Source of the DNA: Patescibacteria group bacterium
Lineage (GTDB): Bacteria > Patescibacteriota > Microgenomatia > UBA12405
Length of the DNA: 64,000 bases
NCBI GenBank assembly: GCA_013387215.1
Contig: WARW01000022.1
Coordinates: 92,612-156,611, forward strand
Direction of reading: 5' to 3'
Positions 1,056 to 53,003 of this stretch are shown here, one piece after another. Below the pieces are notes generated by a model. The model was not told where the DNA came from, searched no databases, and saw only the letters and a program-made list of their open reading frames with translations. Both the position numbers and the translations under genes were made by a program. Position 1 is the first letter of the stretch; the number at the start of each line of letters is the position of its first letter.

Positions 1056-1133
1056 AGATGCAATTTTACTATATTTTTGAAAAATCATCTATGCCTAGAT
1101 GAAAGTTTGATCTGAAATAGCCGTGTTTTTTGC

Positions 1134-11578: not shown

Positions 11579-11583
11579 ATTTT

Positions 11584-23194: not shown

Positions 23195-24193
23195 TTAACT
23201 GGCAATGTCGAGTGGTTTTTCCGAATTATTATTTAAAACTTGAGGAAGTAATCCGTAATCTTCTGCGAGTTTAATTAAATGATTTGTAATCATATCGCCA
23301 CGCTTGGCAACAATTTCATCGTTGGGAGTTAAAATATTTATAGTCAGATATCGACCGACTGCATCTTGTTTACGCCTATTTTCCATATTATCCTGTACCT
23401 CAGAAATTTTGGCTTTTGCAGAATCAGCTAAATTAGTTACTTTATCTTGTATATTTTTACCAACCTCGTCTGATTTAGATTGAAATGATTCTAAGGTTGG
23501 TTGAATATTTTCTTGAACTTTTTCTTTATTTTCATTTAAAGTATTAGATGTTTGATTAAATTTATCTCTTACTGTTGGCTTTAAATCTTCTGATTTTTCT
23601 TGAATGTTTGTTTTTGCGTCTTTTAAAATATTTTTAGATTTTTCAACACCTTCATTTATTTTTCCTTGTATACCTTGAGTTTTTTCCTGTTCTTTAATAG
23701 TTTCTTCCACTTGGGGTTTGACAATAATTACATCTTTACCAATTGTTTCTATTTGAGAAATATTCACATACTTCTTGCCAGATTTTAAATCCTTAAAACC
23801 GCCTTGAGAGACTTCAAATTTTTCAACATATCCAGTTGTTGGATCAAATAATAAATCTGAGATTGTGCCAAGTTCCACACCTGTATCAGTGACCACTCTA
23901 TTGCGAGTTATATATGTATCGTGTTTGGCGATTGATGAAATTTTTTCTCCTGCTTCACTAGAATTTATAATTAAATTATCATTTTCTATTATCAAAGCAT
24001 CATCTCCAATACTTTTAACGTTATTAATTAAAATTAATTTGGGGTCTGAAAATAGTCCACTTTTTTTAACAATAACTGCAGCAATTTTTTTCTCATCGGG
24101 GTCATAAATTAGATCTTCAACTTTACCTATTTCTTTGCCATCCTGAAGAGAAATTATTTTTAAACCAATTACGTTTGTACCTTTTATAGTCAT
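23195..24193 (-). CDS. PRC-barrel-domain protein (two PRC barrels plus a long C-terminal coiled coil)
   Basis: Repeated GxxVxxxxGxxxGxVxDxxxD pattern (GLKIISLQDGKEIGKVEDLIYD; VVTDTGVELGTISDLLFD). Lys/Glu-rich heptads. Confidence 0.55.
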   Translation of the reverse strand: MTIKGTNVIGLKIISLQDGKEIGKVEDLIYDPDEKKIAAVIVKKSGLFSDPKLILINNVKSIGDDALIIENDNLIINSSEAGEKISSIAKHDTYITRNRVVTDTGVELGTISDLLFDPTTGYVEKFEVSQGGFKDLKSGKKYVNISQIETIGKDVIIVKPQVEETIKEQEKTQGIQGKINEGVEKSKNILKDAKTNIQEKSEDLKPTVRDKFNQTSNTLNENKEKVQENIQPTLESFQSKSDEVGKNIQDKVTNLADSAKAKISEVQDNMENRRKQDAVGRYLTINILTPNDEIVAKRGDMITNHLIKLAEDYGLLPQVLNNNSEKPLDIAS

Positions 24194-24744: not shown

Positions 24745-24765
24745 ACTGGCAAGTAGAACTTGCCA
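24745..24765 (-). terminator. 9-bp perfect hairpin (CTGGCAAGT-aga-ACTTGCCAG) followed by a U-run on the minus strand
   Basis: Lies 30 nt downstream of the stop of the 24793-26715 gene. Confidence 0.5.
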
Positions 24766-24792
24766 GTAATTGAGAGGGTTTAAAATTGCTTT

Positions 24793-26715
24793 TTACTTTT
24801 GACCTAAAAAGAAAGACTGAACATCTTTATATTGGATTCGATTAGAAAAATCGCTATTAATTAAAGCCTCATTGCCACCCATACCCATATGCCAGTAGTT
24901 GAAACCAACTACACCGGGTCTTTTGGCAGCACCCATACTATTTTGAACTTGTTGTTCAACATCAGTAGTTCCAGCGCTACCCCATTCGCCTATTATGATT
25001 GGAACGTTTGGATATTTGGCTTGTAAATCATTCAATCCTTGATTCATTGTTTGACCAATAAGTTCTGGATAATGATCAATAGTTAAGTTGCCCATTTTTT
25101 GGACAGTGGCATCTTCCAAAATACCGTGCCAATCTGGATTATTACAACCCCAGACAACAAATCCATCTAGACCATAATAACCAACTTTCATTTGACCGCC
25201 TAGGCCAATAGAACTAAAGGCTTGATTTGATGTATCAATAGCGTCTCTGAGCCATTTATTAAAGTCTGCAATACTAGAATATTGGCATACACCTTGATCA
25301 CAACCAGTGAATCCTTGGATTCCACCGTTTTGTGGTTCTGGTTGAGGTGTGAAAATATCTCCAGCTGCAAATAAAGATGGATTATTTTTAATATAATCGG
25401 AAATCATAGTGAGATAATCAGCTTTGCTTTTATTAGCACCATATATTCCTTCAAATGTAATGTACATGTGCCGATGCCATACTTTCATGCCGCGAGCACG
25501 AATAGCGTCAACCCAAGCTTTAGTATAGGCAAGTGAGTTGCCACAAGATGGATTATCATATGGTGTTTCAACAGCAACATAATTAACTCCCAATTCTTTG
25601 GCTTTATCTAACCATTTACCAATAAAGGTTGGATCATCTTGACCACAAATTTTATCTTTGGTCTCTTTCATTGAGGAAACGCTTTGAATATCCCAAGTTT
25701 TGCCAGAATTTATTGGTGTAGGGGCAATGGTTGGCGTAACTGTAGGAATTGGATTAGATGTTGAGGAAATCAAACTATAGTTTAATTTTGCAACAGCATT
25801 TCCAGTGTTTTCATAATATTCCACTTTAATTTGATGATTACCTGCTGAAACTACCCGATCAGCTCCATCAGTTTTAAGAGCATGATCATTCCATTGATCA
25901 ATCAGCAAGTCGTTATCTAACCAGACTCGAATTCCATCGTCAGAATTAGTGATAAAACGATATGTACCCGCACTGAACGATTGGGTTTTGGTCCATCTGG
26001 CAACAAAATGATCGTTTGTTATTACTGAATTTGGTGAACCAGAACCCCAGTCAAAATTTATAGCACTATCTTGAGTGGTTAAAGTAGGAGAACTTGTTGG
26101 AATTTGAGGCGACGAAGAAACATTTGGTGTATTCCAATAGTTTCCAACGAAGTTATTTGAGTTTGTAACAACAGGAGTGGGTGTAGGCGTATTAGTCGGA
26201 GTTACTTGTGGCTGTGTAGAACCAACAACTTTTATACTCGTAATATCCACAGTAAATGGACCTGAATACCAAAATCTTGTATGAAGATCACCAACTGATT
26301 GGCTTAAGTTTAAACCAGAAAAATCGCTTAAATTTATATCAACAGTTTGAGGACCGTCAAAACAATTTTTGCCATAGTTAGACAAACTAACGTAATTCCA
26401 ATTATTAGATTGGTCAAAAATAAGCGCACTAGCATCACCGCTTAAAGCACAAAGTCCATGAAGATCATATGTAACTCTCAATGTACTGCTTCCTATAAGT
26501 GCTGAAGAATTTATAGATTGTCTTGCTTCAGATGCACCATTATTTCCAGTGAGATGCCAAGTTCCATTTAATAACTCGACATCACCGGCTGCATTGACCG
26601 ATTTATTATGAATAAATAAGCTGACAAAAAACGACAGACAAAGAAACGATAAAAAATATAGACGTTTTGATGAAAGTATCTTCATAGGGTGAATATTTTT
26701 TAAATAAATAAGCAA
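24793..26715 (-). CDS. secreted multidomain protein: signal peptide, beta-sandwich (CBM-like) domain, Thr/Pro linker, PA14 domain, Thr/Pro linker, clan-A (GH5-like) TIM-barrel glycoside-hydrolase-like domain
   Basis: Signal peptide. PA14 signature (YRFITNSDDGIRVWLDNDLLIDQW). Candidate catalytic Glu motifs (QPEPQNGG, IIGEWGSAG). Linkers TPTNTPTPTP and PIPTVTPTIAPTP. Confidence 0.7.
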   Translation of the reverse strand: MLIYLKNIHPMKILSSKRLYFLSFLCLSFFVSLFIHNKSVNAAGDVELLNGTWHLTGNNGASEARQSINSSALIGSSTLRVTYDLHGLCALSGDASALIFDQSNNWNYVSLSNYGKNCFDGPQTVDINLSDFSGLNLSQSVGDLHTRFWYSGPFTVDITSIKVVGSTQPQVTPTNTPTPTPVVTNSNNFVGNYWNTPNVSSSPQIPTSSPTLTTQDSAINFDWGSGSPNSVITNDHFVARWTKTQSFSAGTYRFITNSDDGIRVWLDNDLLIDQWNDHALKTDGADRVVSAGNHQIKVEYYENTGNAVAKLNYSLISSTSNPIPTVTPTIAPTPINSGKTWDIQSVSSMKETKDKICGQDDPTFIGKWLDKAKELGVNYVAVETPYDNPSCGNSLAYTKAWVDAIRARGMKVWHRHMYITFEGIYGANKSKADYLTMISDYIKNNPSLFAAGDIFTPQPEPQNGGIQGFTGCDQGVCQYSSIADFNKWLRDAIDTSNQAFSSIGLGGQMKVGYYGLDGFVVWGCNNPDWHGILEDATVQKMGNLTIDHYPELIGQTMNQGLNDLQAKYPNVPIIIGEWGSAGTTDVEQQVQNSMGAAKRPGVVGFNYWHMGMGGNEALINSDFSNRIQYKDVQSFFLGQK

Positions 26716-26973
26716 GCGTCAGTATAGTATCACCCTAATAGTTAATTATTGTGTAATATTTTTAGGTTCAAATGATGCTGTTTGATGCTTTTTAATTGAT
26801 TTACTCGTGTTTTATTTAATCAACTATTTGATTATTTTGGTTACATATATTCTTCAGATCAATTACCTGTTTTAGTTATATTTCTTACATAATTTTTACC
26901 ATTTTCTGATTTGTGTTTAACATCAAAATATTAAAGTCTAAAGTAATTAATATTTGATATCTTCCACAAAAAT

Positions 26974-27474
26974 ATGAATGCCAATAATGCAGTTCTGATC
27001 GTTTTAATTATCGGGTTGGCAGTTATTGGTGTTTTGATTTTTTCTAAAAGTAACAATACAAATTTGACTAGTTTGAGTTCTCCATCGCCAGAAGTTACTA
27101 CTGTATATGAAGAACCGCCTAGCCCAAGTGAAACTGTTAAATCTCCAATCAACGTCGTATTAAATTCATCAAACAAAAATAATAAGCAGAGTGGGGCAGC
27201 TGTTTTATCTGAAAGTAATGGAAAAGTAACAATTGTAATCAATGCAATTCCAGTTGTTAAAACGAGTTCTCAAACAGTAAGCATAAATAGTGGTGATTGC
27301 TCAAACCTTGGAAAAACCATTTATCAATTAAACAATTTAGTCAAAGGTAAATCGACGACACTTATTGACACGAATCTTCAGGAATTAACCGCAAAAATAC
27401 CTTTAGCAATAAGTATCCATGAACCAAATTCTTCTTCAAATGCATATATAGCCTGTGGCAGCGTTAAGAAATAA
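26974..27474 (+). CDS. membrane-anchored Ser/Thr/Pro-rich extracytoplasmic protein
   Basis: N-terminal TM, then SSPSPEVTTVYEEPPSPSE. The C-terminal domain carries two Cys. Confidence 0.45.
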   Translation: MNANNAVLIVLIIGLAVIGVLIFSKSNNTNLTSLSSPSPEVTTVYEEPPSPSETVKSPINVVLNSSNKNNKQSGAAVLSESNGKVTIVINAIPVVKTSSQTVSINSGDCSNLGKTIYQLNNLVKGKSTTLIDTNLQELTAKIPLAISIHEPNSSSNAYIACGSVKK

Positions 27475-27489
27475 TAACTTTTAAATTTC

Positions 27490-30400
27490 ATGGAAAATAC
27501 AAGCAATAAAATATTTAGAATAAAACCGCGTGATTTTAAGTCGACAATAGGTGCTGGAGTAGTTTTTAAAGAAAAAAGATTTATAACTCATACGTTGCTG
27601 GATGAATCTAAATCAGCAGTAATAACTTTCGCTAGGTGGCAGAAAGTAATTATTCTATTATTTTTATTAAGTTTAATTACTGGCTTAATTTTGTTTCCAC
27701 TAAAAACATTAGGTTTGTTTGTTGGATTTTTAAGTGTAGTTTATTTTATTGATGTACTTTTTAATTTATATGTAATATTTAAAAGTTTATATTTTCCACC
27801 AGAAATTATTGTCAAGGATGAGGATATAAAAAATATAAATGATTTAGAACTCCCAACATATTCTATACTTTGTCCTTTATATAAGGAATCTGAAGTAATC
27901 AAACAATTTTTAACAAATATAAATAATATTGATTGGCCAAAAAATAAACTTGATGTGCTGCTCCTACTTGAAGAGGATGATCTGATTACCCAAGAGGCGG
28001 CAAAAAATATAGATTTACCAAAATATGTTAGGGTAATTATTGTTCCAAATTCATTGCCAAAAACAAAACCAAAAGCTTGTAATTATGGACTACAACTTGC
28101 CAAAGGAAAATATCTAGTTGTTTACGATGCTGAAGACTTACCTGATCCACTTCAACTTAAAAAGGCATATCTAACTTTTCAAAAAGTACCTAAAAACGTT
28201 TACTGCTTACAAGCAAAACTAAATTACTATAATTCATCACAAAATTTGTTGACCCGATTATTTACGGCCGAATATTCCCTTTGGTTTGACGTTGTTTTAC
28301 CAGGATTACAATCGATCAATACCAGCATACCGTTGGGTGGAACCAGTAATCATTTTAGAACTAACGATTTAATTAAACTTCAAGGCTGGGATCCTTTTAA
28401 TGTGACAGAAGATTGCGATTTGGGAATAAGATTGTTCAAAGAAGGATATAAAACGGCAATATTTGATTCTACTACTTTGGAAGAGGCCAACAGTAATGTG
28501 GGAAATTGGATAAGACAAAGATCACGCTGGATAAAAGGATATTTGCAAACCTATTTTGTTCATACCAGAAACCCAATAAGTTTTATAAAAGATTTCAAAT
28601 TTCACGCCTTAATATTTCAATTAATTATCGGTCTTCGTATTTCATTCATTTTAATTAATCCGATTCTTTGGCTGACTACAATCGCCTACTTCGTTTTTTA
28701 TAAATATGTTGGGTCGACTATCGAACTTTTGTATCCTCCTTTTATTTTTTACATTGCCGCCTTCTCACTGTTGATTGGAAATTTTATCTATCTTTACAAT
28801 TATATGATTGGCTGCGCCAAAAAGGAGCAATGGTCAATATTAAAGTTTGTATATCTAGTTCCATTCTATTGGGTATTGATGACTTCAAGTGCTGTTATGG
28901 CCATTCATCAATTAATTTTTAAACCATATTTTTGGGAAAAAACGAACCACGGCTTGAATGTTCAAAAAGAGAAGAGGCCAATCTTTGGACCAGTCTTTGC
29001 AAATTTGGGATTGTTTTTTAAGGATATCCGAGAGGCTGACCTTGTCTTGGTTTTAGCAGCAATTGGGGTTAATTTTTTGAACTTTTTGTATAATGCTTTT
29101 TTGAGTCGAAATGTAAATATAGAAGGTTTTGGTTTAATAAGCTTAATTAGTAACTTTTTTCTTCTAGTTTCCATTCCAATTTATTCACTTTCTGCAACAG
29201 TTGCTAATAAGACTGCATTTTTCTTGGGAAAATATAAAATTTCAATTAAGGATTTTTGGTCTATAACCAGGAAACGTACGATATCAGTTGGATTTGTAGT
29301 AGCAATAATTTGGTTAACACTAATACCTTTTTTGATGCTATTTTTCCAAGCAAACTCCCCTATTCCATTCATATTATTTACCCCTATTTTAATAATTGGA
29401 CTAGTGGGTGCCGTGGATAGTGGTTTTTTAAGTGGTAATTTAAGATTTAAAGATATTGCGTTATTGATTATGATCGAGGCTTTTTTGAAGTTAGTGCTTT
29501 CTATATATATTGTTGAATTGGGTTTCCCTAATTTAGTCTATGCAGCAATTCCAGTTTCTATGATTGTGTCTTTTGTTATGGCATGGATGTTTGCAAGAAA
29601 TATAGTTCCCGAATCTAAAGTGACAAGTGAAAACACAATTTCGTTTCCAGTCGGTTTTTTTTCCACATCTTTTTTAATTAAATTTTCACTTATAGCTTTT
29701 CTAAGTTTTGATGTTCTTTTGGCTAAACACTTTTTGAGTCCCATTGAATCTGGAAAATATGCGTTAATAGCCCTTGCTGGTAAAATGATATTTTTTATTA
29801 GCACTTTATTTAGCCAATTTCTTATTCCTTTAATAAGTAAATCTGAAGGCGCAAATAATAACAGTAATAAGATTTTTGGCAAGATTTTTTTGATCTCTAT
29901 TTTTTCCAGTCTGGTTTTATATATCGGAATTGGTTTATTTGGAAATATTACAGCTCCAATATTATTTGGATCTAACATTAAATCGGTGACGCAATTGTTG
30001 CCTGTATATGGATTAGCAATATTGTGTTTCACAATTTCGAATAATATTGAAACTTTTCAATTAATTAAGAATGACAAAATATTTCCAACCTTAAGTTTTT
30101 TAATAGCAATTTTGCAAATTATTGGCATTTCTATATTTCACAACAGTATTCAAGATATCGTGTTAATCATGACAGTAGTTTCAATATTAAGTATCTTATT
30201 TGTGACTATCATTAGTCTGAATTATCAATATATAAATAGTTCACTTATAAAATTATCCGAAATATTTATTGGCAATAAATATAATGTAAATGAAAATAAT
30301 AAATATCGAATTCTAATTTTCAATTGGTATGACATAAAAAATAAATGGTCTGGGGGTGCTGAAATATACATACATAAAATAGCCAATTATTTAGCTAAAA

Positions 30401-31458
30401 ATAATTGTGAACTTACTTTTTTTTGTGCCGGTGATGGAAGCAGCCTGAGTGAAGAAACTGTTGATGGGATAAAAATTATAAGAAAAGGCAATATGTATAC
30501 CGTTCCTATTTGGGCTTTTATTAATTATATTTTTCGATTTAGAGGCAAGTACGATTTAATAATCGATGTTGCTAAAGGAATTCCCTTTTTCACACCTTTA
30601 TACAGCAGCATTCCAGTTATCGGGGTTATTCATCATATCCATCAAAAAATGTTTTTGAGTGGGCTGCCATTCCCGTTGAATCGAATCGCTATGACTATAG
30701 AAGCCAACTTTTTGCCTGCAATTTATAAAAATACAGATATGATAACCGTTTCAAAATCCTCAAAATCTGCAATGAGCGATATTGGTTTTGATATAAAAAG
30801 AATACGAATTGCTAATCCGGGAGTGAAAATAAAAATTAACAAAAAAATTAATAAATCCACAAAACCAACATTAATTTATTTGGGACGACTTAAGCAATAT
30901 AAACATATTGATAACATTATTATTGCTTTAGCAAAAATTAAAAAATACCATCCAGAAACTAAATTAATTATTGCCGGAACTGGCGATAATGAAGAATATT
31001 TAAGAGAGTTAACTAGAGATTTGAAACTAGAAAAATCTGTTGATTTTATGGGTAAGGTTTCCGAAGAAGATAAGCCAAGCTTACTGGGAAAAGCTTGGAT
31101 AGCAATACAACCTTCTGAGGTTGAAGGTTGGGGCATAACAAATATTGAAGCGAACATGTGCGGTACTCCAGTAATTGCATCAGACGTAGACGGATTAAAA
31201 GATTCTGTAATAGATGGAAAAACTGGAATTTTGGTTCCAGTGAACAACATTAATTCTCTTGCTAAAGCAGTGATTGATCTTATTGAGGATGATGTTTATA
31301 GAACTTATTTAACTAATAACGCAATTAAATGGAGCAAAAGATTTAAATGGCATAAAAGCGGAAAAATATTTATTGATTTGATAAATCAAAAGCTTAAAAA
31401 ACAAAGTGAAGAGTATGGTGTGGTTGAGAATGAAAATTTGGAGGGAGTATATGAATAG
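27490..31458 (+). CDS. 1322-aa fusion: TM-flanked processive GT2 synthase domain, Wzx/MOP-like multi-TM domain (~12 TM), C-terminal GT4 (Glycos_transf_1) domain
   Basis: GT2 motifs D…DAED…TED…QRSRW are all present (aa ~120-350). Residues ~500-900 are almost entirely hydrophobic helices, like a polysaccharide-biosynthesis flippase. The C-terminal EGWGITNIEANMCGTPVIASDVDGLKDSVIDGKTGILV matches GT4. One uninterrupted ORF. Confidence 0.8.
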   Translation: MENTSNKIFRIKPRDFKSTIGAGVVFKEKRFITHTLLDESKSAVITFARWQKVIILLFLLSLITGLILFPLKTLGLFVGFLSVVYFIDVLFNLYVIFKSLYFPPEIIVKDEDIKNINDLELPTYSILCPLYKESEVIKQFLTNINNIDWPKNKLDVLLLLEEDDLITQEAAKNIDLPKYVRVIIVPNSLPKTKPKACNYGLQLAKGKYLVVYDAEDLPDPLQLKKAYLTFQKVPKNVYCLQAKLNYYNSSQNLLTRLFTAEYSLWFDVVLPGLQSINTSIPLGGTSNHFRTNDLIKLQGWDPFNVTEDCDLGIRLFKEGYKTAIFDSTTLEEANSNVGNWIRQRSRWIKGYLQTYFVHTRNPISFIKDFKFHALIFQLIIGLRISFILINPILWLTTIAYFVFYKYVGSTIELLYPPFIFYIAAFSLLIGNFIYLYNYMIGCAKKEQWSILKFVYLVPFYWVLMTSSAVMAIHQLIFKPYFWEKTNHGLNVQKEKRPIFGPVFANLGLFFKDIREADLVLVLAAIGVNFLNFLYNAFLSRNVNIEGFGLISLISNFFLLVSIPIYSLSATVANKTAFFLGKYKISIKDFWSITRKRTISVGFVVAIIWLTLIPFLMLFFQANSPIPFILFTPILIIGLVGAVDSGFLSGNLRFKDIALLIMIEAFLKLVLSIYIVELGFPNLVYAAIPVSMIVSFVMAWMFARNIVPESKVTSENTISFPVGFFSTSFLIKFSLIAFLSFDVLLAKHFLSPIESGKYALIALAGKMIFFISTLFSQFLIPLISKSEGANNNSNKIFGKIFLISIFSSLVLYIGIGLFGNITAPILFGSNIKSVTQLLPVYGLAILCFTISNNIETFQLIKNDKIFPTLSFLIAILQIIGISIFHNSIQDIVLIMTVVSILSILFVTIISLNYQYINSSLIKLSEIFIGNKYNVNENNKYRILIFNWYDIKNKWSGGAEIYIHKIANYLAKNNCELTFFCAGDGSSLSEETVDGIKIIRKGNMYTVPIWAFINYIFRFRGKYDLIIDVAKGIPFFTPLYSSIPVIGVIHHIHQKMFLSGLPFPLNRIAMTIEANFLPAIYKNTDMITVSKSSKSAMSDIGFDIKRIRIANPGVKIKINKKINKSTKPTLIYLGRLKQYKHIDNIIIALAKIKKYHPETKLIIAGTGDNEEYLRELTRDLKLEKSVDFMGKVSEEDKPSLLGKAWIAIQPSEVEGWGITNIEANMCGTPVIASDVDGLKDSVIDGKTGILVPVNNINSLAKAVIDLIEDDVYRTYLTNNAIKWSKRFKWHKSGKIFIDLINQKLKKQSEEYGVVENENLEGVYE

Positions 31459-32374
31459 GACATTGTTAGTAAACATCGGAATTCCCGCATATAACGAAAT
31501 GCAGAACATCGGGAAATTATTAGAATCTCTACAATCTCAAAATTTTCAAGAATTTAAGATAAACAATATATTGGTTGTATCTGATGGCAGCACCGATGAC
31601 ACAGATAGAATCGTAAAAAAATTTAAAAATAAAAAAATAAAATTGATTAGTGATAAAAAAAGAAACGGAGTGGCTATTAGACTTAATCAAATTATAAAGC
31701 TAACCGATACGGATATTTTAGTTATTTTAAATGCCGATATTTTACCTAAAGATTCTAATTTTATTGATCATTTGGTTAAGCCGATAATACATTATAATGC
31801 CGACTTAACATCAGCAGCAATTAGACCCGTTACTCCTACAAAATGGTTTGAAAAAATTGTTGGAGTAGGCGAAAAAATAAAAACTAGTTTTTTTGAAGAT
31901 TATTTAAAGGGTAATAATTTTTATACTTGCAGAGGGACCGCTAGAGCATTTTCTAAAAGATTTTATAAAAAGATTGTGTTTCCAAACAAAATTGGCGACG
32001 ATTCTTATTCGTATTTATATTGTGTGTCTAATAATTATAAATACTTTTTTGCAGACCAGGCGATTATTTATTTTAAATTACCAGATAGTTATAAAGATTT
32101 TAAAAAACAAATAGTTAGGTTTTTAAAAATTAAAGAGAATTTTTCTTTGGTTTTTGGAACGAAACAAATAAATAAAAATTTATATTTTTCAAAATTTAAG
32201 TTTATTAAAAAAACATTTTCTTATTTTTTACACGATATTATGGGGACGGTTCTGTATTCAATGCTTTACACGTATGTACGAATAGACAGTTTATTCGCAA
32301 GAAGCGATAGCTCTGGTGCTTGGGAAACTTCAAAAAGCACTAAATTATTAAACAATTTATATGAAACAAAATAA
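31451..32374 (+). CDS. GT2 family glycosyltransferase
   Basis: NIGIPAYNEMQNI…VVSDGSTDDT. Start ATG at 31451 overlaps the upstream stop (ATGAATAG). GGAGG lies 4 nt upstream. Confidence 0.75.
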   Translation: MNRTLLVNIGIPAYNEMQNIGKLLESLQSQNFQEFKINNILVVSDGSTDDTDRIVKKFKNKKIKLISDKKRNGVAIRLNQIIKLTDTDILVILNADILPKDSNFIDHLVKPIIHYNADLTSAAIRPVTPTKWFEKIVGVGEKIKTSFFEDYLKGNNFYTCRGTARAFSKRFYKKIVFPNKIGDDSYSYLYCVSNNYKYFFADQAIIYFKLPDSYKDFKKQIVRFLKIKENFSLVFGTKQINKNLYFSKFKFIKKTFSYFLHDIMGTVLYSMLYTYVRIDSLFARSDSSGAWETSKSTKLLNNLYETK

Positions 32375-33185
32375 ACAACTTTTTAGATATGAAAATGTTT
32401 TGATACCAATAAGAAAAATTGTATATCTTGTTCTTTGTTTTTATGATCAATATATTTTAAAAAACTATAATAAAACTTTTGTTGTTTGTTATCACAGTAT
32501 TTCCAGTGATGATTGGAGATTTAGCATAAATCCAGAAAATTTTAAAAAACAAATTAATTATTTATCAAAAAATTACCAGTTTATTAATGCAGATCAGCTT
32601 CTTAATTATTTAGAAAACAAAGACAATTTAAGTAAACCATCGATCCTTATATGCTTTGATGATGGTTATAAAGATTTATTATCGATAAAAAACTATTTAT
32701 ATCAGAAAAATATAAAACCATTATTATTTCTAATCTCTAAAACTAAAGGTGTTAACCGAAAGGAATTAAAAAATAGAAAACAACTTTTAAACAAAAATGA
32801 TATAAAAACGCTCATGGATTTTGGTTGGACAATTGGCTCACACGGCCTGACTCATTCTAATTTTTTCAAATTGAATAAGTTGCAAAAAGAATCAGAAATA
32901 ATTATTTCAAAAAAGACTTTAGAAAAAAAATTTAGAGTAGATATTAAATATTTTTCTTTTCCAAAGGGAAATTATTCTATTGAAGATATCGAAATTTTAA
33001 GAAGAGCAGGTTATAAGTTGGCTTTTTCTATGGAAGATAGAATTTTAGTCCAACAAATTAATCCCTATATTATTCCTCGAATCGGAGTCGATAAAACTCA
33101 TAATTTTAATGAATTTAAATCACTTTTTTCACCTTCTGTAATAAAAGTTAGAAATGTTTTTAAAAAATTTTTATCCTATGTCTAA
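32361..33185 (+). CDS. polysaccharide deacetylase (NodB/CE4)
   Basis: ICFDDGYKDL, HGLTHSNF and later His motifs. Confidence 0.75.
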   Translation: MKQNKQLFRYENVLIPIRKIVYLVLCFYDQYILKNYNKTFVVCYHSISSDDWRFSINPENFKKQINYLSKNYQFINADQLLNYLENKDNLSKPSILICFDDGYKDLLSIKNYLYQKNIKPLLFLISKTKGVNRKELKNRKQLLNKNDIKTLMDFGWTIGSHGLTHSNFFKLNKLQKESEIIISKKTLEKKFRVDIKYFSFPKGNYSIEDIEILRRAGYKLAFSMEDRILVQQINPYIIPRIGVDKTHNFNEFKSLFSPSVIKVRNVFKKFLSYV

Positions 33186-33891
33186 TAATTTGATTAATAT
33201 ACTAAATTTAGCCCGATCTAAAACCAGTAGGTTTGTTAAACCTAGAAAAAATTATTTTATTTTTACAAACCCACAAAGAAGTTTGAGGCCAGTGAGCAAA
33301 TTATATGGATTTGACAGAGGGACACCGATCGACAGGTATTATATTGAAAAATTTTTAGAAAATAATAAAGTTTTAATTTATGGGAGATGTTTGGAGATAC
33401 ATGACAATTTTTATACAAAAAAATTTGGAGAGGAAAGGGTTACTGTAAGCGATGTCTTGGATATAAATCCTGATAATTTTCAGGCAAATATTCATGGAGA
33501 TTTGAGAAATTTATCCAATATCGAAAATGAAACCTATGATTGTTTAATAGTTACTCATACCTTGGGAATAATCGATGATTACAATTCGGTAGTGAAAGAA
33601 TGTTATCGAATATTAAAAAAAGGTGGATACCTGCTTTTAACTTCTTCATTTATCGGGCCGCTTTATGACAAAGAAAATACTTTTTGGAAATTTACACCTA
33701 AGTCTTTAGACTATATATTTTCAAAAATATTTTTAAATTCTAAAGCTGAAATTACAACGTATGGGAATGTTTTGGTCTGCCAATGTTTTTTGGCTGGTTT
33801 TTCATTAGAAGAACTTAAACGAGAAGAACTTGAATATAACGATTCTAATTTTCCATTAGTAGTTTGTTTAAAGGTAAGAAAAAGTTTATGA
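33178..33891 (+). CDS. class I SAM-dependent methyltransferase
   Basis: CLEIHD…VLDIN… (motif I-like) and …RILKKGGYLLLT (post-II). ATGTCTAA overlap with the upstream stop. Confidence 0.6.
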   Translation: MSNNLINILNLARSKTSRFVKPRKNYFIFTNPQRSLRPVSKLYGFDRGTPIDRYYIEKFLENNKVLIYGRCLEIHDNFYTKKFGEERVTVSDVLDINPDNFQANIHGDLRNLSNIENETYDCLIVTHTLGIIDDYNSVVKECYRILKKGGYLLLTSSFIGPLYDKENTFWKFTPKSLDYIFSKIFLNSKAEITTYGNVLVCQCFLAGFSLEELKREELEYNDSNFPLVVCLKVRKSL

Positions 33892-35093
33892 AAAACAAAC
33901 ATATTGATGTAATCGTTAAGTATTTTTATCCGGTCGTTGCAGGAATTGAAACAAACATATTGGAAACGTATAGCATTTTAGCTAAAGAAGGGTGGGATAT
34001 TACTATTCATACTTCCAAAGATGTATATATGTGTAAAAATTGCTTAAGCGACAAAGAAAAATATAGAGGATTAAGAATAGTTCGATATAAGTTTTCTTTT
34101 TTTGGTTTTTTTCCCAAAATTGATTGGAGTAATACTAGTTTGGTATGTCTTCACAATTTTGATGTTTTCCCTCATTTTAGAATTCTTATATATAGTTTGT
34201 ATTTGAAAATTTTAGATAAAAAATATTTTGGTCTAATATTAACTCCCCATGGCGGCTTTAATCCAGAATGGTCTATTTATTCAAAAGCAATTGGCTTCAT
34301 AAAAAAGTTGTATCACTTTACATTTGGAGCTATTTTAATAAATTTAGTAGTTGATGGAATCAGGGCGGTTTCAGATTGGGAAAAAGAAGAAATTATTTCT
34401 AAGAATGTAAAAAAAGAATTAGTCGTAGTTATTGATAATGGAATTGAAACTGAGGCATTTTTGAATCTCGAAAAACTGGCTAGCAAGGAAATAAAAAACC
34501 AAGTAAGTATTTTTGGAGATTATATTATTCAAATAGGCAGAATCTATCCGATTAAGAACTATGAAACAACGATAATTGCCTTAAATAGTCTTCCTAAAAA
34601 TCTTAAATATATAATTGTTGGACCCATTAGCGATAAAAAATATTTTGATAATTTAAATATTTTAATAAACAAATTCAATTTAAATGATCGCGTTAAATTT
34701 GTGGGGGTGATAAAAGGAATCGATAAATATTACCTTATCAAACACGCTCAAATGATGGTGCACATGGCTTTATGGGAAAGTTTTTGCAATGTTGTTCATG
34801 AAGGCTTAAGTCAAGGCTTGGTGTGCATAGTGGCCAACAATACCGCTCTACCCTATTTGGTTAAGGATGGAATAAATGGATATTGTGTAGAAACAAAAGA
34901 TTTTAATGAATTGGCAAAAAAAATCAATTTTGTTTTGAAGAACAAAGAAACTCCAATGATAAAAGAAATGGAGGAAATTAACAGAAATTATGGCCGAATT
35001 AATAGCTGGAAAAATGTGGCGAATAAAATGAATTCTTTTTATAAGTACAAACTTAACATGTTTACTAATCATGAAAAACTATGGTCAGTCTAA
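33888..35093 (+). CDS. GT4 family glycosyltransferase
   Basis: Glycos_transf_1 C-terminal block (…SFCNVVHEGLSQGLVCIVANNTALPYLVKDGINGY). ATGA overlap with the methyltransferase stop. Confidence 0.75.
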   Translation: MKNKHIDVIVKYFYPVVAGIETNILETYSILAKEGWDITIHTSKDVYMCKNCLSDKEKYRGLRIVRYKFSFFGFFPKIDWSNTSLVCLHNFDVFPHFRILIYSLYLKILDKKYFGLILTPHGGFNPEWSIYSKAIGFIKKLYHFTFGAILINLVVDGIRAVSDWEKEEIISKNVKKELVVVIDNGIETEAFLNLEKLASKEIKNQVSIFGDYIIQIGRIYPIKNYETTIIALNSLPKNLKYIIVGPISDKKYFDNLNILINKFNLNDRVKFVGVIKGIDKYYLIKHAQMMVHMALWESFCNVVHEGLSQGLVCIVANNTALPYLVKDGINGYCVETKDFNELAKKINFVLKNKETPMIKEMEEINRNYGRINSWKNVANKMNSFYKYKLNMFTNHEKLWSV

Positions 35094-36715
35094 ATTTAAA
35101 GAATAACTGGTTTAATGTTTTATATTATTTAATTTGTATATTAATATTGGTTTTAAGTCTGCGAGGAATTCCGGGGAATCCAAAAGATTTAGAATTAAAT
35201 ACTTCAACTTGGAAAGAAAATGGACCTTTGGAATTATCTACAGACAGAGGAAGATTCGCTTTAACTTATTCTTTATTAGAGAATAAATCTTTTAATTTTT
35301 CTTTAAATATTGCTAAGTTTGCAACTCCAGATTTGGGATATTTCAATGGCAAGTTTGTTTCCTTGTTTGATCCTGGTTTATCATTTTTGGTTATACCAGG
35401 ATATATTATTGGGAAACTATTAGGAGCTGCACAAGTCGGGACTTTTGCCATTATTTCTATCTTTGCGCTTTTAAATGTCTTTCTAATTAGAAAGTTATCA
35501 GAAGAACTTGGAGCTAATAAAATTATGTCTGCGATAGCTGGTTTAGTATTTTTATTTGCAACACCGGCTTTTACTTATAGTGTTACTTTGTATCAACACC
35601 AAATTACAACTTTTATTATTTTGCTGTCTACTTTTCTTTTAATAAAATATGATAATTTTTGGACATTGGCTTTAGTATGGATGCTTCTTGGATTGTCGTT
35701 TGCCATTGATTATCCAAATGCAGTTTTGGTTTTTCCACTAGTAATTTTGGCAATTAAAAAAATATTTTCTATCGATATTCAAAAAAACAGAATTTTATTT
35801 AGATTAAAGAGTTTATACATATTAAGTTTATTAACAGTACTTATACCAATCAGCTTTCTTCTTTGGTTCAATAAAAATTCATACAATAAATATTTTCAAC
35901 TGGCAGGTACGGTTACTCAAGTTACAGGGTTTGATAATAACACTCCTATAAATAATAGATATGTTATTGAAGATGCAACAAAGTATGTAAGCCCAGACAG
36001 AAAAAGCGGTTTTTTGGGAAGCTTTTTTTATACAAGAAATTTGCTTGAAGGATTTTATATTTTATTTTTAAGTCCAGACAGAGGAATTGTGAATTATACG
36101 CCTGTAATTCTTTTGGGATTAGGCGGAATTATTGTGGCTTATAAAAGGAAAATGGAATTACTGCCATTTTTGTTTTCAATAATCGGATTGAATATTCTTT
36201 TGTATGCCATGTGGGGAGACCCTTGGGGCGGATGGGCTTTTGGATCAAGATACTTAATACCTACCTATGCTATTCTTTCTATTTTTATTTCCATATTTTT
36301 AACAAAATATAGAAAATATTTAATCTTGTTGCCAATATTTTTAATTTTGTTTTCTTATTCAGTTTTTGTAAATACTGCCGGTGCTATTACTACTAATGCA
36401 ATACCACCTCAAGTTGAAGTGCTTGATTTGGAAAAAGCTTCCAACAGTATTCAAAAATATACTTATCAAAAAAATTTTGATTATTTGAGCATGAATAAAT
36501 CGAAATCATTTGTTTACCAATTAATCGGCAAAAATTATATGAGTTCCTGGAGATACTTTTATGTTTTGTATACATTAATTATGTCTTTAAGCGTGGGTTT
36601 ATTAGTTGTTCAATATGCAGATAATTTTAAAAAAATATTTTCAAAAATCTCCATTAATGTTTTTCGAAAAACATTACCTCTTAATATTAATTTTTTAAAG
36701 AGAAAATATGACTAA
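35081..36715 (+). CDS. GT-C-fold (PMT/ArnT-like) polytopic membrane glycosyltransferase, putative
   Basis: About 12 TM. Asp/Arg-containing first extracytoplasmic loop (LSTDRGRFALTYSL). Overall topology like GT39/GT83. Confidence 0.55.
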   Translation: MVSLNLKNNWFNVLYYLICILILVLSLRGIPGNPKDLELNTSTWKENGPLELSTDRGRFALTYSLLENKSFNFSLNIAKFATPDLGYFNGKFVSLFDPGLSFLVIPGYIIGKLLGAAQVGTFAIISIFALLNVFLIRKLSEELGANKIMSAIAGLVFLFATPAFTYSVTLYQHQITTFIILLSTFLLIKYDNFWTLALVWMLLGLSFAIDYPNAVLVFPLVILAIKKIFSIDIQKNRILFRLKSLYILSLLTVLIPISFLLWFNKNSYNKYFQLAGTVTQVTGFDNNTPINNRYVIEDATKYVSPDRKSGFLGSFFYTRNLLEGFYILFLSPDRGIVNYTPVILLGLGGIIVAYKRKMELLPFLFSIIGLNILLYAMWGDPWGGWAFGSRYLIPTYAILSIFISIFLTKYRKYLILLPIFLILFSYSVFVNTAGAITTNAIPPQVEVLDLEKASNSIQKYTYQKNFDYLSMNKSKSFVYQLIGKNYMSSWRYFYVLYTLIMSLSVGLLVVQYADNFKKIFSKISINVFRKTLPLNINFLKRKYD

Positions 36716-38306
36716 CTATACATTTTCTATTCCTGTTAATTTTTGGAAAAATACAGGTTTAGTATTAGAAAAAAATTTAAAGTTAATTGTAGGAATAATT
36801 TTGGTAATAATTTCCATTACCGCATTTGTTTATTATTGGAGAAACGGACTAGGAATCGCATATAACGATGCGAGATCACACTTAGATATTGGGCGCCGAG
36901 TTATTGAAGGATTAAAACCTGGGTTAGCTCAACTTGGCTCTGTTTGGTTGCCATTGCTGCATTTCTTGATGATTCCTACAATTTGGAATAATTTTATGTG
37001 GCATTCCGGACTTTCAGGAGCATTGGTTTCGATGATTTCTTTTGTATTTTGCGGACTTTTGATTTATCAATTTCTAGAACAATTAGGGGTTGGAAAAGTT
37101 GGTCGATTAACTGGTGTAATTATTTTTGCAGCTAATCTGAATATATTATATTTGCAATCCACAGCCATGACAGAACTGTTGCTTTTAGCTACGATGACGG
37201 CTGGTTCATATGAATTATTGATTTGGCACAAAACAGGCAATTATTTAAATTTAGTTAAATCAGCGATTTGGATAATGCTTTCCACTTTAACTCGATATGA
37301 TGGGTGGTTTTTATTGTTCTATGCCACTCTTTTAATAATTATTAATGTAGTAAAAAAGAAAAGTTACAAAACAGCAGAAGGCACTTTGATTTTATTTTTG
37401 ACTATGGCCGCTTTAGGGGTGGTTTTGTGGTTTTTGTGGAATTTATTAATCTTTAAAGATCCTTTTTATTTTATTACTGGTCCATTTTCAGCAAAGGCAC
37501 AGCAAGATTTATTGTCTAACGCAGGCGTATTACCAACTAAGGGAAACTTTTTTTTATCCATGAAGGTCTATTTATATGCCTTGATGTATAACACTCAAAC
37601 TTTTCCGTCAATACTTGGATTAATTGGGGCAATTATATTGTGGTTTGATAATAAGATAAACAGATCCATAAAAATGGCATCAACGGTACTTTTAGCACCA
37701 TTATTTTTTAATATAATAGCTTTATATATTGGACACTCGGTTTTATATGTACAAGGGATATCTGGAAACACCTGGTTTAATGTTAGGTATGGAATTATGC
37801 TCCTACCATCAATTGCTATATTTATTGGATACTTAATCGATAAATTAAAACCGTTTAGGGTAGTTTTAATTTCACTTATTTTATTTACTTCATTTTTTTC
37901 AATAGTAAGCGGGGATGCAGTAACAATAGATGATGCAAAATTTGGTTCCAGCCAAAAAAACGTTACTGAAATAAGCGAGTGGCTTAAAGAAAATGTGACT
38001 AACGAAAATAGTTATATTTTAATTTCCGTTGCTTCACACGATGCAATTGTTTTTTCCTCTGGATTACCAATGAAACGTTTTATACATGAAGGGACTGGAG
38101 ACTATTGGAATAAAGCGATAATAAACCCGGATAAATACGCAAAATATATTATTATGAGAACTAATGATGCAACAGATATGACTTTTAGATTGGTCGGCAA
38201 ATCACCTGGATTTAGCCGATATCAAAAAATTTCTAGTTTTCCTTTCGCAGACATATATGAATTAAGACCAGAATATTGGAATAATTTAGCAACAAACACA
38301 AAATGA
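36708..38306 (+). CDS. second GT-C-fold membrane glycosyltransferase, putative
   Basis: About 12 TM. First loop YNDARSHLDIGRRV. Large C-terminal extracytoplasmic domain. ATGACTAA overlap with the upstream stop. Confidence 0.55.
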   Translation: MTNYTFSIPVNFWKNTGLVLEKNLKLIVGIILVIISITAFVYYWRNGLGIAYNDARSHLDIGRRVIEGLKPGLAQLGSVWLPLLHFLMIPTIWNNFMWHSGLSGALVSMISFVFCGLLIYQFLEQLGVGKVGRLTGVIIFAANLNILYLQSTAMTELLLLATMTAGSYELLIWHKTGNYLNLVKSAIWIMLSTLTRYDGWFLLFYATLLIIINVVKKKSYKTAEGTLILFLTMAALGVVLWFLWNLLIFKDPFYFITGPFSAKAQQDLLSNAGVLPTKGNFFLSMKVYLYALMYNTQTFPSILGLIGAIILWFDNKINRSIKMASTVLLAPLFFNIIALYIGHSVLYVQGISGNTWFNVRYGIMLLPSIAIFIGYLIDKLKPFRVVLISLILFTSFFSIVSGDAVTIDDAKFGSSQKNVTEISEWLKENVTNENSYILISVASHDAIVFSSGLPMKRFIHEGTGDYWNKAIINPDKYAKYIIMRTNDATDMTFRLVGKSPGFSRYQKISSFPFADIYELRPEYWNNLATNTK

Positions 38307-39535
38307 TTGCATTAGTTGCCTCGTTTGTGGTTTCGTTATTTTCTTTAAATAATAATTTAACTATTAATGATTCTTGGTGGAAAGTTCAGTCTGTTGACAC
38401 GGTAAAATATTCACGTGATCTGGCTAGAAGTGAAATTTCAAACCCAAATTTGGATTCAATTATTGACGAGCAAGTTAAAGATATTGCTGATATTGGGGCA
38501 AATTATGTTGCTATTGATACTCCATATGATGAAGAGTTTAGGCCCTATTTAATAAAATGGGTTGAAAGTGCAAGAAGACACAATCTTAATGTTTGGTTTC
38601 GAGGTAATTTTTCCGGTTGGGAAAAATGGTTTGATTATCAGTCTATTAGCAGCGAGGATCATTTAAAAATGACGAGTAATTTTATTTTAAACAATCCCGA
38701 TTTGTTTAAAGATGGTGACATTTTTACGGCTTGCCCTGAGTGTGAAAACGGAACAATAGGCGATCCAAGAAGCACTGGTAATTTAGATGAATATCGCTCG
38801 TTTATGATTAATGAATATCAAATAACAAAAAATGATTTTAAAAAAATTAATAAAAAGGTTATTTCAAACTTTAATTCGATGAATGGAGATGTAGCAATGG
38901 CAGTGATGGATAAACCGACAACACAGTCAATGGATGGAATTGTGACAATAGACCATTATGTGGCGGATCCAGAAAAAATAACTGATTATATAAATCTTAT
39001 AAGTGAAAATAGTGGAGGAAAAATTGTTTTAGGTGAATTTGGCGCTCCTATCCCCGATTTAAACGGTAATCTGGATGAAGATCAACAATCTATATGGATT
39101 AATGAAGCCTTAAATAAAATAGCTCAGTCAAATAATATTATTGGAATAAATTATTGGACTAACATAAATTCAACTACCCAACTATGGAATAATAATGGTA
39201 TCCCTAGAAAGGCCGTTAGTATCGTGAAAAATTATTATTCACCTCAAATATTAAGAGGGTCTATTAAAAATGAGATCGGACAAGCAGTTAGAAATGCCGA
39301 TGTGTATATTGCCAATAAGTCAACAAAATCTGATAATAATGGATATTTTTCAATACCATATATAAACCACAATACTAACGTAAATATTTATAGTCCCGAT
39401 TATATGCATCAGATAATATCTATTGATGATTTCAAAAAAAACGGAAAAGCAATTTTAATTAAATATCCAGAAGACTTTTGGTTTAGAGCGGAGAAATTAT
39501 TTTATTCTATATATACCAGCCGCTTCCGGAGGTAA
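38303..39535 (+). CDS. clan-A glycoside-hydrolase-like protein (paralogue of the 24793-26715 catalytic domain) with C-terminal CarboxypepD_reg-like domain
   Basis: Shares NYVAIDTPYD, GDIFTACPECENG, IDHY and LGEFGAP blocks with the PA14 protein. C-terminal GSIKNEIGQAVRNADVYIANKSTKSDNNGYFSI. ATGA overlap. Confidence 0.65.
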   Translation: MIALVASFVVSLFSLNNNLTINDSWWKVQSVDTVKYSRDLARSEISNPNLDSIIDEQVKDIADIGANYVAIDTPYDEEFRPYLIKWVESARRHNLNVWFRGNFSGWEKWFDYQSISSEDHLKMTSNFILNNPDLFKDGDIFTACPECENGTIGDPRSTGNLDEYRSFMINEYQITKNDFKKINKKVISNFNSMNGDVAMAVMDKPTTQSMDGIVTIDHYVADPEKITDYINLISENSGGKIVLGEFGAPIPDLNGNLDEDQQSIWINEALNKIAQSNNIIGINYWTNINSTTQLWNNNGIPRKAVSIVKNYYSPQILRGSIKNEIGQAVRNADVYIANKSTKSDNNGYFSIPYINHNTNVNIYSPDYMHQIISIDDFKKNGKAILIKYPEDFWFRAEKLFYSIYTSRFRR

Positions 39536-40303
39536 CATGCTGGCAATTTTAGGCATAATAAAACGAGTCGGCATAAAATCGTTATGAGTATAAATTTCTT
39601 TGGCTGTAACTATTGTTTTTTGAGATGGAACACAAAGACTTCGAGTGGAAGGATCAAAGAGTCTGTATGAACCATCAATAGAAACCGGCAAAACACAAAA
39701 TTTGGTTTTATCTTTTAAAAATCTTGTTACAATTCCGTCAAAAGAATTATCCTCTTTTACCTCTACCATGCCATTAATTATTCCATTTTCATTAATTCTT
39801 CCGCCTTTTAGAGTGCCTTCCGGTAAAAATATTATTCCGAAATTATCTTTGTGGGCTGATATTAATTTTTTAAGATTATCTGAGTTTTTATCTTCTATTC
39901 CATATCTTTTTATGTCTTCTTCTCGTGTGACAGGTATCAAATTAACACCTCTTTGCTGACATACCGGTGTCAGTTTTTCTACTAAATACCTGACTTCTTC
40001 ACCCTGATCACCTGAACAAATTGAACTAGCTATCGGTAAATAAAAACCGTTAAAACCATCAACTTTTATTTTGCTTGTAATCATGGAAATAGCGAGTCCG
40101 TCAGCGTGACTTTGATGATTACTTACTATAAGAGGCATGTAGCCTTCTTTAATTAAGGTGGAAAAATCGGAAATTAACTGTTGATTACAATTCAACTCGA
40201 AGTTATTAAAAATATTGCCCAATTCAGAGACTGATCTTTTCTCTGGTACTTGAGCCATTAATGTACCTTCATTCTTATTTGTGATTATAAGTTTTTCTGA
40301 CAT
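39497..40303 (-). CDS. 1-acyl-sn-glycerol-3-phosphate acyltransferase-like (PlsC family)
   Basis: HxxxxD motif (NHQSHADG) and downstream EGT/PEGT block (FLPEGTLKGG). Confidence 0.7.
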   Translation of the reverse strand: MSEKLIITNKNEGTLMAQVPEKRSVSELGNIFNNFELNCNQQLISDFSTLIKEGYMPLIVSNHQSHADGLAISMITSKIKVDGFNGFYLPIASSICSGDQGEEVRYLVEKLTPVCQQRGVNLIPVTREEDIKRYGIEDKNSDNLKKLISAHKDNFGIIFLPEGTLKGGRINENGIINGMVEVKEDNSFDGIVTRFLKDKTKFCVLPVSIDGSYRLFDPSTRSLCVPSQKTIVTAKEIYTHNDFMPTRFIMPKIASMLPPEAAGIYRIK

Positions 40304-43055: not shown

Positions 43056-43103
43056 AAAAAATTTAACTAATAATGGTTAGAGTACACAAAGAATAACATA
43101 TTT

Positions 43104-51540: not shown

Positions 51541-51596
51541 TCGAGCTATAATAAATCTACTTGCATTTAGAATTAAATTCAGCTAGAAATATTACT

Positions 51597-52999: not shown

Positions 53000-53003
53000 A
53001 CTT

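Follow-up and report, generated by a model that had tools for sequence, protein, structure and literature searches.

We propose that eight consecutive genes of a Patescibacteria group bacterium (assembly GCA_013387215.1, contig WARW01000022.1, positions 92,612 to 156,611; this whole stretch of 64,000 nucleotides is called the window below) form an operon that represents, in this genome, a conserved assembly line of the Microgenomates for a cell-envelope glycopolymer, in which head and tail are constant and the middle can be swapped, and we give this reading a probability of roughly 55%. The head is gene 1, a predicted fusion of a processive synthase of glycosyltransferase family 2 (GT2), a Wzx-like flippase and a GT4 domain. 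The middle is a cassette of a further GT2, a NodB-type deacetylase of carbohydrate esterase family 4 (CE4), a methyltransferase and a GT4, and the tail consists of two membrane proteins of predicted GT-C type, TM1 and TM2, followed by a membrane-anchored glycoside hydrolase (GH) of clan GH-A. The region had been read as a single glycan-biosynthesis unit in an earlier note made from the DNA letters, and this stands, since 85 loci keep the gene order and other lineages have the components joined in fusion proteins.

TM2 was searched for in one genome per GTDB species and occurs in at least 410 species-level genomes, with records named after Ames-, Gottesman-, Woese-, Davies-, Levy-, Curtiss-, Shapiro- and Chisholmbacteria and WWE3. 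More than 2150 homologues of TM2 (60-69% identity) and more than 2300 of the GH (about 50% identity) were obtained; none of those listed carries a functional name, and the organism names given are Patescibacteria, mostly Microgenomates groups. The organism itself had been taken for a member of the candidate phyla radiation (CPR), and it is indeed a CPR bacterium of Microgenomates type. A number of loci (L009, L011-L013, L015, L020, L029, L052 and others) are titled "uncultured Gammaproteobacteria", "Bdellovibrionales", "Bathyarchaeia" or "Eisenbacteria"; on loci of Microgenomates type such titles are probably a mislabelled or placeholder taxonomy of CPR bins.

For a comparison of layouts, open reading frames (ORFs) were called in 85 loci, representatives of 80 species among them, and labelled by the window proteins. 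Common to these loci is a synthase-Wzx-GT4 head, then a variable glycosyltransferase cassette, then GT-C, GT-C and GH. TM1 stands immediately 5' of TM2 in 77 of 77 loci, the GH follows no more than 3 kb downstream in 71 of 76, and the same synthase-Wzx-GT4 ORF opens at least 25 related loci. Cassette counts were taken from the 44 loci whose upstream 10 kb are complete: every one has at least one GT2 gene, 42 have a GT4 and 32 a Wzx-like domain upstream. The cassette of the window, GT2-CE4-methyltransferase-GT4, is repeated exactly in five loci (L039, L047, L064, L072 and L084) and with the same four genes in another order in L044, while other cassettes hold several GT2 genes, rhamnose-pathway or dTDP-sugar genes, short-chain dehydrogenase/reductase genes, and pyruvyl- or acetyl-transferases. 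Median identity to the window follows the same division, with 63% for the synthase, 62% for TM2 and 51% for the GH, and 45% for the fused GT4, 44% for TM1, 36% for Wzx and 34% for the cassette GT2; TM2 and the synthase are thus the most conserved parts and TM1 is the more variable GT-C. The question raised earlier, whether the block is conserved or variable among related genomes, is answered by both words: head and tail are constant, the middle is variable, and the anatomy of the locus is that of O-antigen or cell wall polysaccharide loci, conserved machinery around a variable centre.

Synteny with the closest relative, L005, runs from the PRC-barrel gene through Lon. Identity there is 80% for the GH upstream of the operon that carries a PA14 domain, 77% for the synthase, 69% for TM2 and 58% for the operon GH, and only 39% for the GT2; CE4, the methyltransferase, the GT4 and the Wzx domain are all missing from the L005 locus.

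Several other loci show features of their own. In L003 (WWE3, 11327-12506) and L004 (Gottesmanbacteria, 11313-12433) a protein of about 200 residues and a sortase follow directly after the GH, and in L004 a LytR-CpsA-Psr gene is also nearby; such neighbours hint at a link to wall anchoring. No such genes follow the GH in the window, where a sortase is encoded at 1836-2540. The metagenomic locus L087 (1-12318) has a cassette with a pyruvyl transferase and a hexapeptide acetyltransferase, a single protein of 889 residues that unites TM2, GH and the beta-sandwich, and a third GT-C of PMT_2 type after it.

A profile search with TM2 among 1.84 billion representatives gave 2741 relatives, of which the longer ones were examined for fusions. 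TM1 and TM2 are joined in P0262, and TM2 and GH in P0271, P0283, P0313 and P0404 (E about 1e-80 to the window GH), the last with the beta-sandwich also present. P0270 and P0278 combine a TM2-like GT-C with a GH5 domain that Pfam recognises, and in seven proteins (P0314, P0352, P0362, P0372, P0389, P0396 and P0410) the synthase, with E values of 1e-123 to 1e-148 for its domain, is fused to TM2. On a contig of 59% GC there is a module of just two genes, in which a GH5 gene adjoins a synthase-GT-C fusion. From these fusions of synthase, TM2, TM1 and GH and from the two-gene module it would be logical to conclude that the parts work together on a polysaccharide, and the recurrent joining of synthase to GT-C and of GT-C to GH5 suggests that a synthase-dependent route is coupled here to a lipid-carrier/GT-C route.

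In gene 1, Pfam finds the GT2 and GT4 domains, which had been recognised earlier; the processive-synthase nature of the former and the flippase domain between the two had been missed, and both alter the mechanism. The GT2 domain aligns end to end with the NCBIfam models of PgaC/IcaA (64.7 bits) and CelA (63.8 bits), both scores lying far under the equivalog cut-offs. Its motifs EEDD161, DAED213, TED306 and QRSRW343 are each at least 90% conserved among 23 orthologues, so that judged by its D/DxD/TED/QxxRW signature it is an intact processive synthase of predicted BcsA/PgaC type. The middle domain has no Pfam match, even at E 10. Homologues that consist of this domain alone fall into PF01943/PF13440, under the labels of O-antigen/teichoic acid export protein or oligosaccharide flippase, from which we take the region to be a Wzx-like flippase domain.

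TM1 and TM2 of the window match nothing in Pfam, PF13231 (PMT_2) included, even at E 10. Among their relatives, 9 of 44 TM1 orthologues match PF13231 (best E 2.6e-8) and distant TM2 relatives reach 30-35 bits, over its 26.1-bit cut-off. TM2 crosses the membrane several times and has the GT-C fold; the GT-C call made earlier for both membrane proteins is borne out by this fold and by the PMT_2 matches of the TM1 orthologues. TM1 appears from sequence comparison to be a distant paralogue of TM2 (BLASTP E 0.002; hhalign E 1e-4, with a borderline probability of 57%). The only sequence family touched by both is NCBIfam NF047440 (LA_3751/LA_3752), with E 2e-11 (43 bits) for TM1 and E 1e-5 (25 bits) for TM2 against a cut-off of 200 bits. 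Directly after the first transmembrane helix, in the first external loop, TM2 has the invariant residues Y52-N53-D54-x-R56-S57-H58, and P83-D84 is invariant in TM1. The putative use of a polyprenyl-phosphate-linked sugar donor by these GT-C enzymes is indirectly supported by P0340 from Saccharimonadales, a fusion of GtrA, GT2 and a TM2-like GT-C. As to the C-terminal extracytoplasmic domain of TM2 (residues about 403-520), its conservation is unusually strong for a soluble domain of a GT-C, with the runs DDAxxGSSQKNV, SxASHDA and FIHEGxGxYW invariant across the aligned homologues.

Single-sequence and profile searches of the PDB with TM1, TM2 and the GH returned nothing useful, and fold comparison alone worked. 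With the GH profile no glycoside hydrolase was found in the PDB, only the beta-sandwich being matched, and the operon GH has no match to PF00150 (GH5). Its structural model (mean predicted local distance difference test score, pLDDT, 90.5) is a (beta/alpha)8 barrel, in which invariant residues occupy the positions of the GH5 set: R100/N102 on strand 3, E146 after strand 4, H218/Y219 on strand 6, E245 (LGEFG) on strand 7 and W285 on strand 8. The product of the last gene is, by this model, an anchored barrel of clan GH-A with a catalytic constellation like that of GH5. PF00150 does match, at 46-62 bits, those GH domains that other lineages carry fused to a TM2-like GT-C. E146 lies in a CPEC loop, five residues past strand 4 and outside the canonical N-E-P motif; E148 is replaced by Q in the paralogue with PA14, and E146 is therefore the better candidate for the acid/base. 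The two cysteines that frame it (C144 and C147 of an invariant C-P-E-C, P-E-P in the paralogue) might form a disulfide outside the cytoplasm, or a site of redox chemistry or metal binding beside the active centre. A CarboxypepD_reg domain had been called in this protein; in the window it stays under the threshold (20.9 bits against a cut-off of 32.3), and it is supported by orthologues with clear PF13620/PF13715 matches and by the beta-sandwich that the model shows at residues 315-385.

The secreted paralogue upstream of the operon has a PA14 match of E 2.3e-18 (Pfam), a weak one to PF00150 (E 0.0066) and the same invariant residue set, and its GH domain is 28% identical to the operon GH over 286 residues (E 6e-24). 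Both proteins begin with a hydrophobic segment, a single one in the PA14 protein; the extracytoplasmic clan GH-A enzymes predicted earlier are present. Of the bracketing of the operon by two paralogous hydrolases, the paralogy holds, and the bracketing does not extend beyond the lineage, the PA14 gene being found at this position only in L005, with a catalytic domain 80% identical. It is also not convergent, as had been stated: on the minus strand, its start faces the start of the operon and the two are divergent. The true start is likely to be the ATG at 26685 rather than 26715. Residues about 40-180, before a Pro/Thr linker, match no family and may be a further carbohydrate-binding module.

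The cassette is what differs from genome to genome. Its GT2 carries the metal-binding motif ...LNADILP..., with NAD in place of the DxDxQ of polyprenyl-phosphate sugar synthases, and scores only weakly as AglJ, ArnC or PpgS; the GT4 is Agl16-like (172.7 bits, under the cut-off), and CE4 is weakly similar to PgaB/IcaB. By hydropathy none of the four enzymes has a signal peptide or a transmembrane segment, and in other genomes CE4 is found in the fusions GT2+CE4, CE4+methyltransferase and GT2+CE4+TM1 (CE4 being N-terminal to TM1). Because of this missing export signal and these fusions with cytoplasmic GT2 or methyltransferase, deacetylation and methylation are most likely cytoplasmic steps that would take place on a lipid-linked precursor before export, which goes against the earlier claim that the polymer is modified outside the cell. 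The same two enzymes had been counted among the defining combination of the system, but of the 44 fully covered loci 19 have CE4 and 8 the methyltransferase, and both are absent from the closest relative; together with the second GT4 they belong to the variable cassette and lie outside the core. A deviant composition of the block had been suggested for checking, and the answer is divided: GC is lowest in the cassette (0.23-0.29, with the operon minimum of 0.234 in CE4) against 0.324 for the window, and the tetranucleotide profile is normal. A recent horizontal transfer of the cassette is not claimed, since tetranucleotide usage is not deviant along with the lower GC.

The eight genes stand in the ORF list where the earlier note had placed them, and Pfam agrees with its domain calls (GT2+GT4 in gene 1, GT2, Polysacc_deac_1, Methyltransf_11, GT4 and PA14). 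Its claim that start and stop codons overlap at every junction was confirmed by direct reading of the sequence: 7 of 7 operon junctions overlap, against 4 of the 28 other same-strand junctions of the window under an identical gene-calling rule (probability about 5e-5, hypergeometric, our calculation from these counts). A clear Shine-Dalgarno sequence (GGAGGGAG) precedes the GT2 start alone, which is consistent with coupling by termination and reinitiation. Just 5' of gene 1, the gene of a small single-pass membrane protein, which has no Pfam match and a homologue only in L005 (40% identity) and is thus lineage-specific, is probably a ninth member of the operon and the first in order.

Table 1. 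Features of the operon and of its upstream flank (window coordinates; aa, amino acids; nt, nucleotides; TM, transmembrane segments; SAM, S-adenosylmethionine)
Feature	Position	Strand	Details
Terminator-like hairpin	24745..24767	-	10 bp stem and T-run, directly past the stop of the PA14 gene
Secreted PA14 paralogue	24793..26715	-	signal peptide, N-terminal domain, PA14, clan GH-A (GH5-like) domain aa ~340-640
Small single-pass membrane protein	26974..27474	+	166 aa; ends 15 nt 5' of gene 1
Gene 1, tri-domain fusion	27490..31458	+	1322 aa; Pfam GT2+GT4, middle domain by homology
Gene 1, domain 1	aa ~40-490		membrane-embedded processive GT2 synthase (predicted)
Gene 1, domain 2	aa ~495-930		Wzx-like flippase, ~12 TM, ~430 residues
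Gene 1, domain 3	aa ~940-1322		GT4
Junction gene 1/GT2	31451		ATGAATAG; 8 nt overlap
Soluble GT2	31451..32374	+	307 aa; PF00535 E 5e-23
Junction GT2/CE4	32361		14 nt overlap
CE4 (NodB-type) deacetylase	32361..33185	+	PF01522 E 2e-16
Junction CE4/methyltransferase	33178		ATGTCTAA; 8 nt overlap (32 nt with alternative ATG 33154)
SAM-dependent methyltransferase	33178..33891	+	PF08241 E 5.7e-9; alternative start 33154
Junction methyltransferase/GT4	33888		ATGA; 4 nt overlap
GT4 glycosyltransferase	33888..35093	+	PF00534 E 3.5e-26
Junction GT4/TM1	35081		13 nt overlap
TM1, divergent PMT_2-type GT-C glycosyltransferase (predicted)	35081..36715	+	544 aa, ~11 TM
Junction TM1/TM2	36708		ATGACTAA; 8 nt overlap
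TM2, GT-C glycosyltransferase	36708..38306	+	532 aa; conserved C-terminal extracytoplasmic domain
Junction TM2/GH	38303		ATGA; 4 nt overlap
Membrane-anchored clan GH-A (GH5-like) enzyme (modelled)	38303..39535	+	barrel aa ~25-312, CarboxypepD_reg-like aa ~315-385, C-terminal helix

Taking these data together, the assembly line may be pictured as follows. The synthase domain of gene 1 would polymerise and extrude a constant beta-linked backbone, while its fused GT4 and the cassette enzymes would build and tailor, on a polyprenyl-phosphate carrier at the cytoplasmic face, a strain-specific sugar or oligosaccharide, which in this genome would be partly de-N-acetylated and methylated. The Wzx domain would flip the lipid-linked intermediate and the two GT-C enzymes would transfer the flipped unit outside the membrane: TM1, variable in the manner of Wzy- or ligase-type enzymes, may be the polymerase or ligase of the variable unit, and TM2, itself invariant, may act together with the equally invariant product of the synthase. 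The anchored, presumably retaining GH5-like enzyme could cleave, size, release or transglycosylate the product, possibly into the wall; the divergent PA14 paralogue would be a lineage-specific accessory for remodelling, and the overlapping stop and start codons would keep the parts co-expressed. The part in host attachment that had been suggested earlier is purely speculative.

A number of observations weigh against this picture. The assignment of TM1 to the GT-C enzymes comes from sequence comparison with an hhalign probability of just 57%. The operon GT2, having no DxDxQ motif, is ruled out as a lipid-sugar synthase of GtrB/WpsA type, and a GT2 with this motif may be encoded elsewhere in the genome. 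The Wzx domain is missing from the fusions of L005 and L013 and is hence not universal. Pfam and NCBIfam reveal no BcsB, PgaD, IcaD or PilZ-like partner in the operon; no Wzy polymerase and no Wzz or polysaccharide co-polymerase (PCP) was seen in the operon or the annotated window ORFs, and no initiating enzyme of phosphoglycosyl transferase type among the latter, a few ORFs near the 3' end being unscanned, so that of the components of a Wzx/Wzy pathway the Wzx-like domain alone is present in the operon. Promoter-like sites are fewer than in shuffled sequences and terminator-like sites across the scanned region are at chance level, both of which say nothing about the transcription unit. The roles of TM1 and TM2, the acceptor, the sugar chemistry and the choice of the GH between hydrolysis and transglycosylation are all inferred.

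By analogy, the locus seems to resemble a Gram-positive multi-component glycosylation system combined with a synthase-plus-hydrolase system such as Bcs or Ccs. Lactococcal PSP and GacIJKL are described as comprising a GT2, cytoplasmic elongation on C55-P (undecaprenyl phosphate), a Wzx and a GT-C, with a DxDxQ motif defining the GT2 that makes polyprenyl-phosphate sugars (PMC10821137). There, as proposed here, cytoplasmic glycosyltransferases work on polyprenyl-phosphate, a Wzx-type flippase leads outward, a GT-C polymerises or transfers onto a separate backbone, and the machinery flanks a strain-variable glycosyltransferase region (PMC10821137). Flippase and GT-C are encoded together, as in GtrABC, GacIJKL and Wps, here as a Wzx-like domain and two GT-C genes in one operon. 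Unlike PSP, whose backbone comes from an ABC-transporter pathway, the candidate backbone maker here is a processive membrane synthase fused to a flippase and a GT4; the operon lacks both a DxDxQ GT2 of WpsA/GacI type and a WpsB/GacJ partner, a GH5-like enzyme takes part as an obligatory member, and no Pfam model picks up the GT-C proteins. From the PMT_2/ArnT/GtrC enzymes of GtrA-GtrB-GtrC systems the pair differs in being an obligatory tandem that scores on no Pfam model in the window, with the distinct and extremely conserved C-terminal domain of TM2 and with its fusions to synthases or GH elsewhere. The Leptospira family NF047440 is named after two consecutively numbered loci and is touched by both TM1 and TM2, but their scores are far under its cut-off and this putative-glycosyltransferase family is itself uncharacterised.

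A lipid-linked glycan flipped by Wzx might also be destined for proteins, the GT-C enzymes being oligosaccharyl- or O-mannosyl-type transferases that act on S-layer, pilin or sortase-anchored proteins. The GT-C fold and the Agl16-like GT4 fit such protein glycosylation, but the synthase and GH fusions are left unexplained by it, and we hold it improbable. To the same low degree we would credit an ordinary synthase-dependent exopolysaccharide, a biofilm matrix like poly-N-acetylglucosamine (PNAG) or cellulose, in which CE4 deacetylates, the GH trims and the GT-Cs are peripheral or unrelated. The synthase does resemble PgaC and CelA, CE4 weakly resembles PgaB/IcaB, and a cognate hydrolase adjoins nearly every exopolysaccharide synthase, as the clostridial GH5 enzyme CcsZ does (bioRxiv 10.1101/837344). 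BcsA/BcsZ, CcsA/CcsZ and PgaC with PgaB (CE4+GH) share with the locus the GT2 motifs D/DxD/TED/QxxRW, a dedicated extracytoplasmic GH and an optional CE4. But the CE4 here is cytoplasmic and present in less than half of the loci, an extracytoplasmic deacetylase of PgaB/IcaB type is not found, and partners of PilZ, BcsB, PgaD or IcaD type were not detected; no feature is more constant than the GT-C pair, TM2 is fused to the synthase elsewhere, the flippase domain and the multi-glycosyltransferase cassette would find no use in a system built on a homopolymer synthase, and the GH lies outside the recognised GH5 sequence models. A PNAG system of Pga/Ica type in particular is ruled out by the cytoplasmic, optional CE4 and the lack of PgaD/IcaD.

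Less probable still, in our estimation, is a membrane-anchored lipoglycan similar to lipoteichoic acid (LTA) or to lipomannan and lipoarabinomannan (LM/LAM), for which GT4 and GT2 would glycosylate a lipid of the inner leaflet, Wzx would flip it and the GT-Cs would elongate it outside from polyprenyl-phosphate sugars. In mycobacteria PimA/PimB and then PimE/Mpt serve lipoglycan elongation in this manner, but the GT4 similarity in our locus is generic, nothing points to a lipid acceptor, and a conserved processive synthase with a GH5-like partner is foreign to LAM and LTA pathways. That no single system exists, and that a compact genome has tightly packed a chance run of unrelated glycosyltransferase genes, which are common and in a window where overlaps occur elsewhere too, is excluded by the order kept in the 85 loci and by the fusions of the components in other lineages. 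The envelope glycopolymer assembly line stays, accordingly, the reading that we prefer.

The surroundings of the operon are those of an ordinary chromosome, with UvrABC, RelA/SpoT, tRNA synthetases, Lon, Era, Obg, rpsD and two tRNAs in the window. Convergent with the operon, a 268-residue ORF with a faint match to acyltransferases of PlsC type (39497-40303, minus strand) overlaps the 3' end of the GH gene with its own 3' end by 39 nt, and in L005 a His_Phos_1 gene stands in its place. Further downstream (41631-45008, minus strand), phosphoglucomutase/phosphomannomutase and glycogen-phosphorylase-like genes are a possible local supply of hexose-1-phosphate for nucleotide sugars; the mutase is 33% identical to its positional counterpart in L005. 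At 51561-55284 on the plus strand there is a four-gene cluster of an ABC ATPase, an ABC-2 permease, an ABC_transp_aux/DUF7088 protein and a DUF4340 protein, and transport systems of this type are frequently tied to surface or export functions. On the other side of the PA14 gene, and adjoining it in L005 too, a gene at 23195-24193 (minus strand) encodes PRC-barrel domains and a long apolipoprotein-like helical region.

The system had been called a candidate novel one, and in the literature searched on glycosyltransferases, GT-C enzymes and cell walls of Patescibacteria, CPR and Microgenomates we found no description of the locus, nor, in the literature searched, of a coupling of synthase-dependent and lipid-carrier GT-C routes. 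Every part belongs to a known superfamily, and the locus is for this reason not categorically new. Undescribed in that literature are the fusion of synthase, flippase and GT4, the two GT-C families that escape Pfam and stand in obligatory tandem, the GH-A family outside the GH5 models, the fusion patterns and the conservation across many named Microgenomates groups. We may even suggest, tentatively and as a bolder possibility that we would sooner doubt than assert, that an undescribed hybrid route, in which a synthase is coupled to GT-Cs and to a new family of GH5-like transglycosylases, makes the main wall-associated secondary polymer of the Microgenomates, a functional stand-in for teichoic acid whose cassette would be exchanged in the manner of serotypes under the influence of phage or host.

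To our knowledge, the envelope of CPR/Patescibacteria cells has hardly been studied by experiment. With a soluble GH domain and intact synthase motifs, the locus offers two parts that lend themselves to heterologous biochemistry. The locus holds three families missed by standard models, two of GT-C and one of clan GH-A, and offers a concrete candidate for the main glycopolymer at the surface of these bacteria, whose strain-level variability may be an interface to phage or host.

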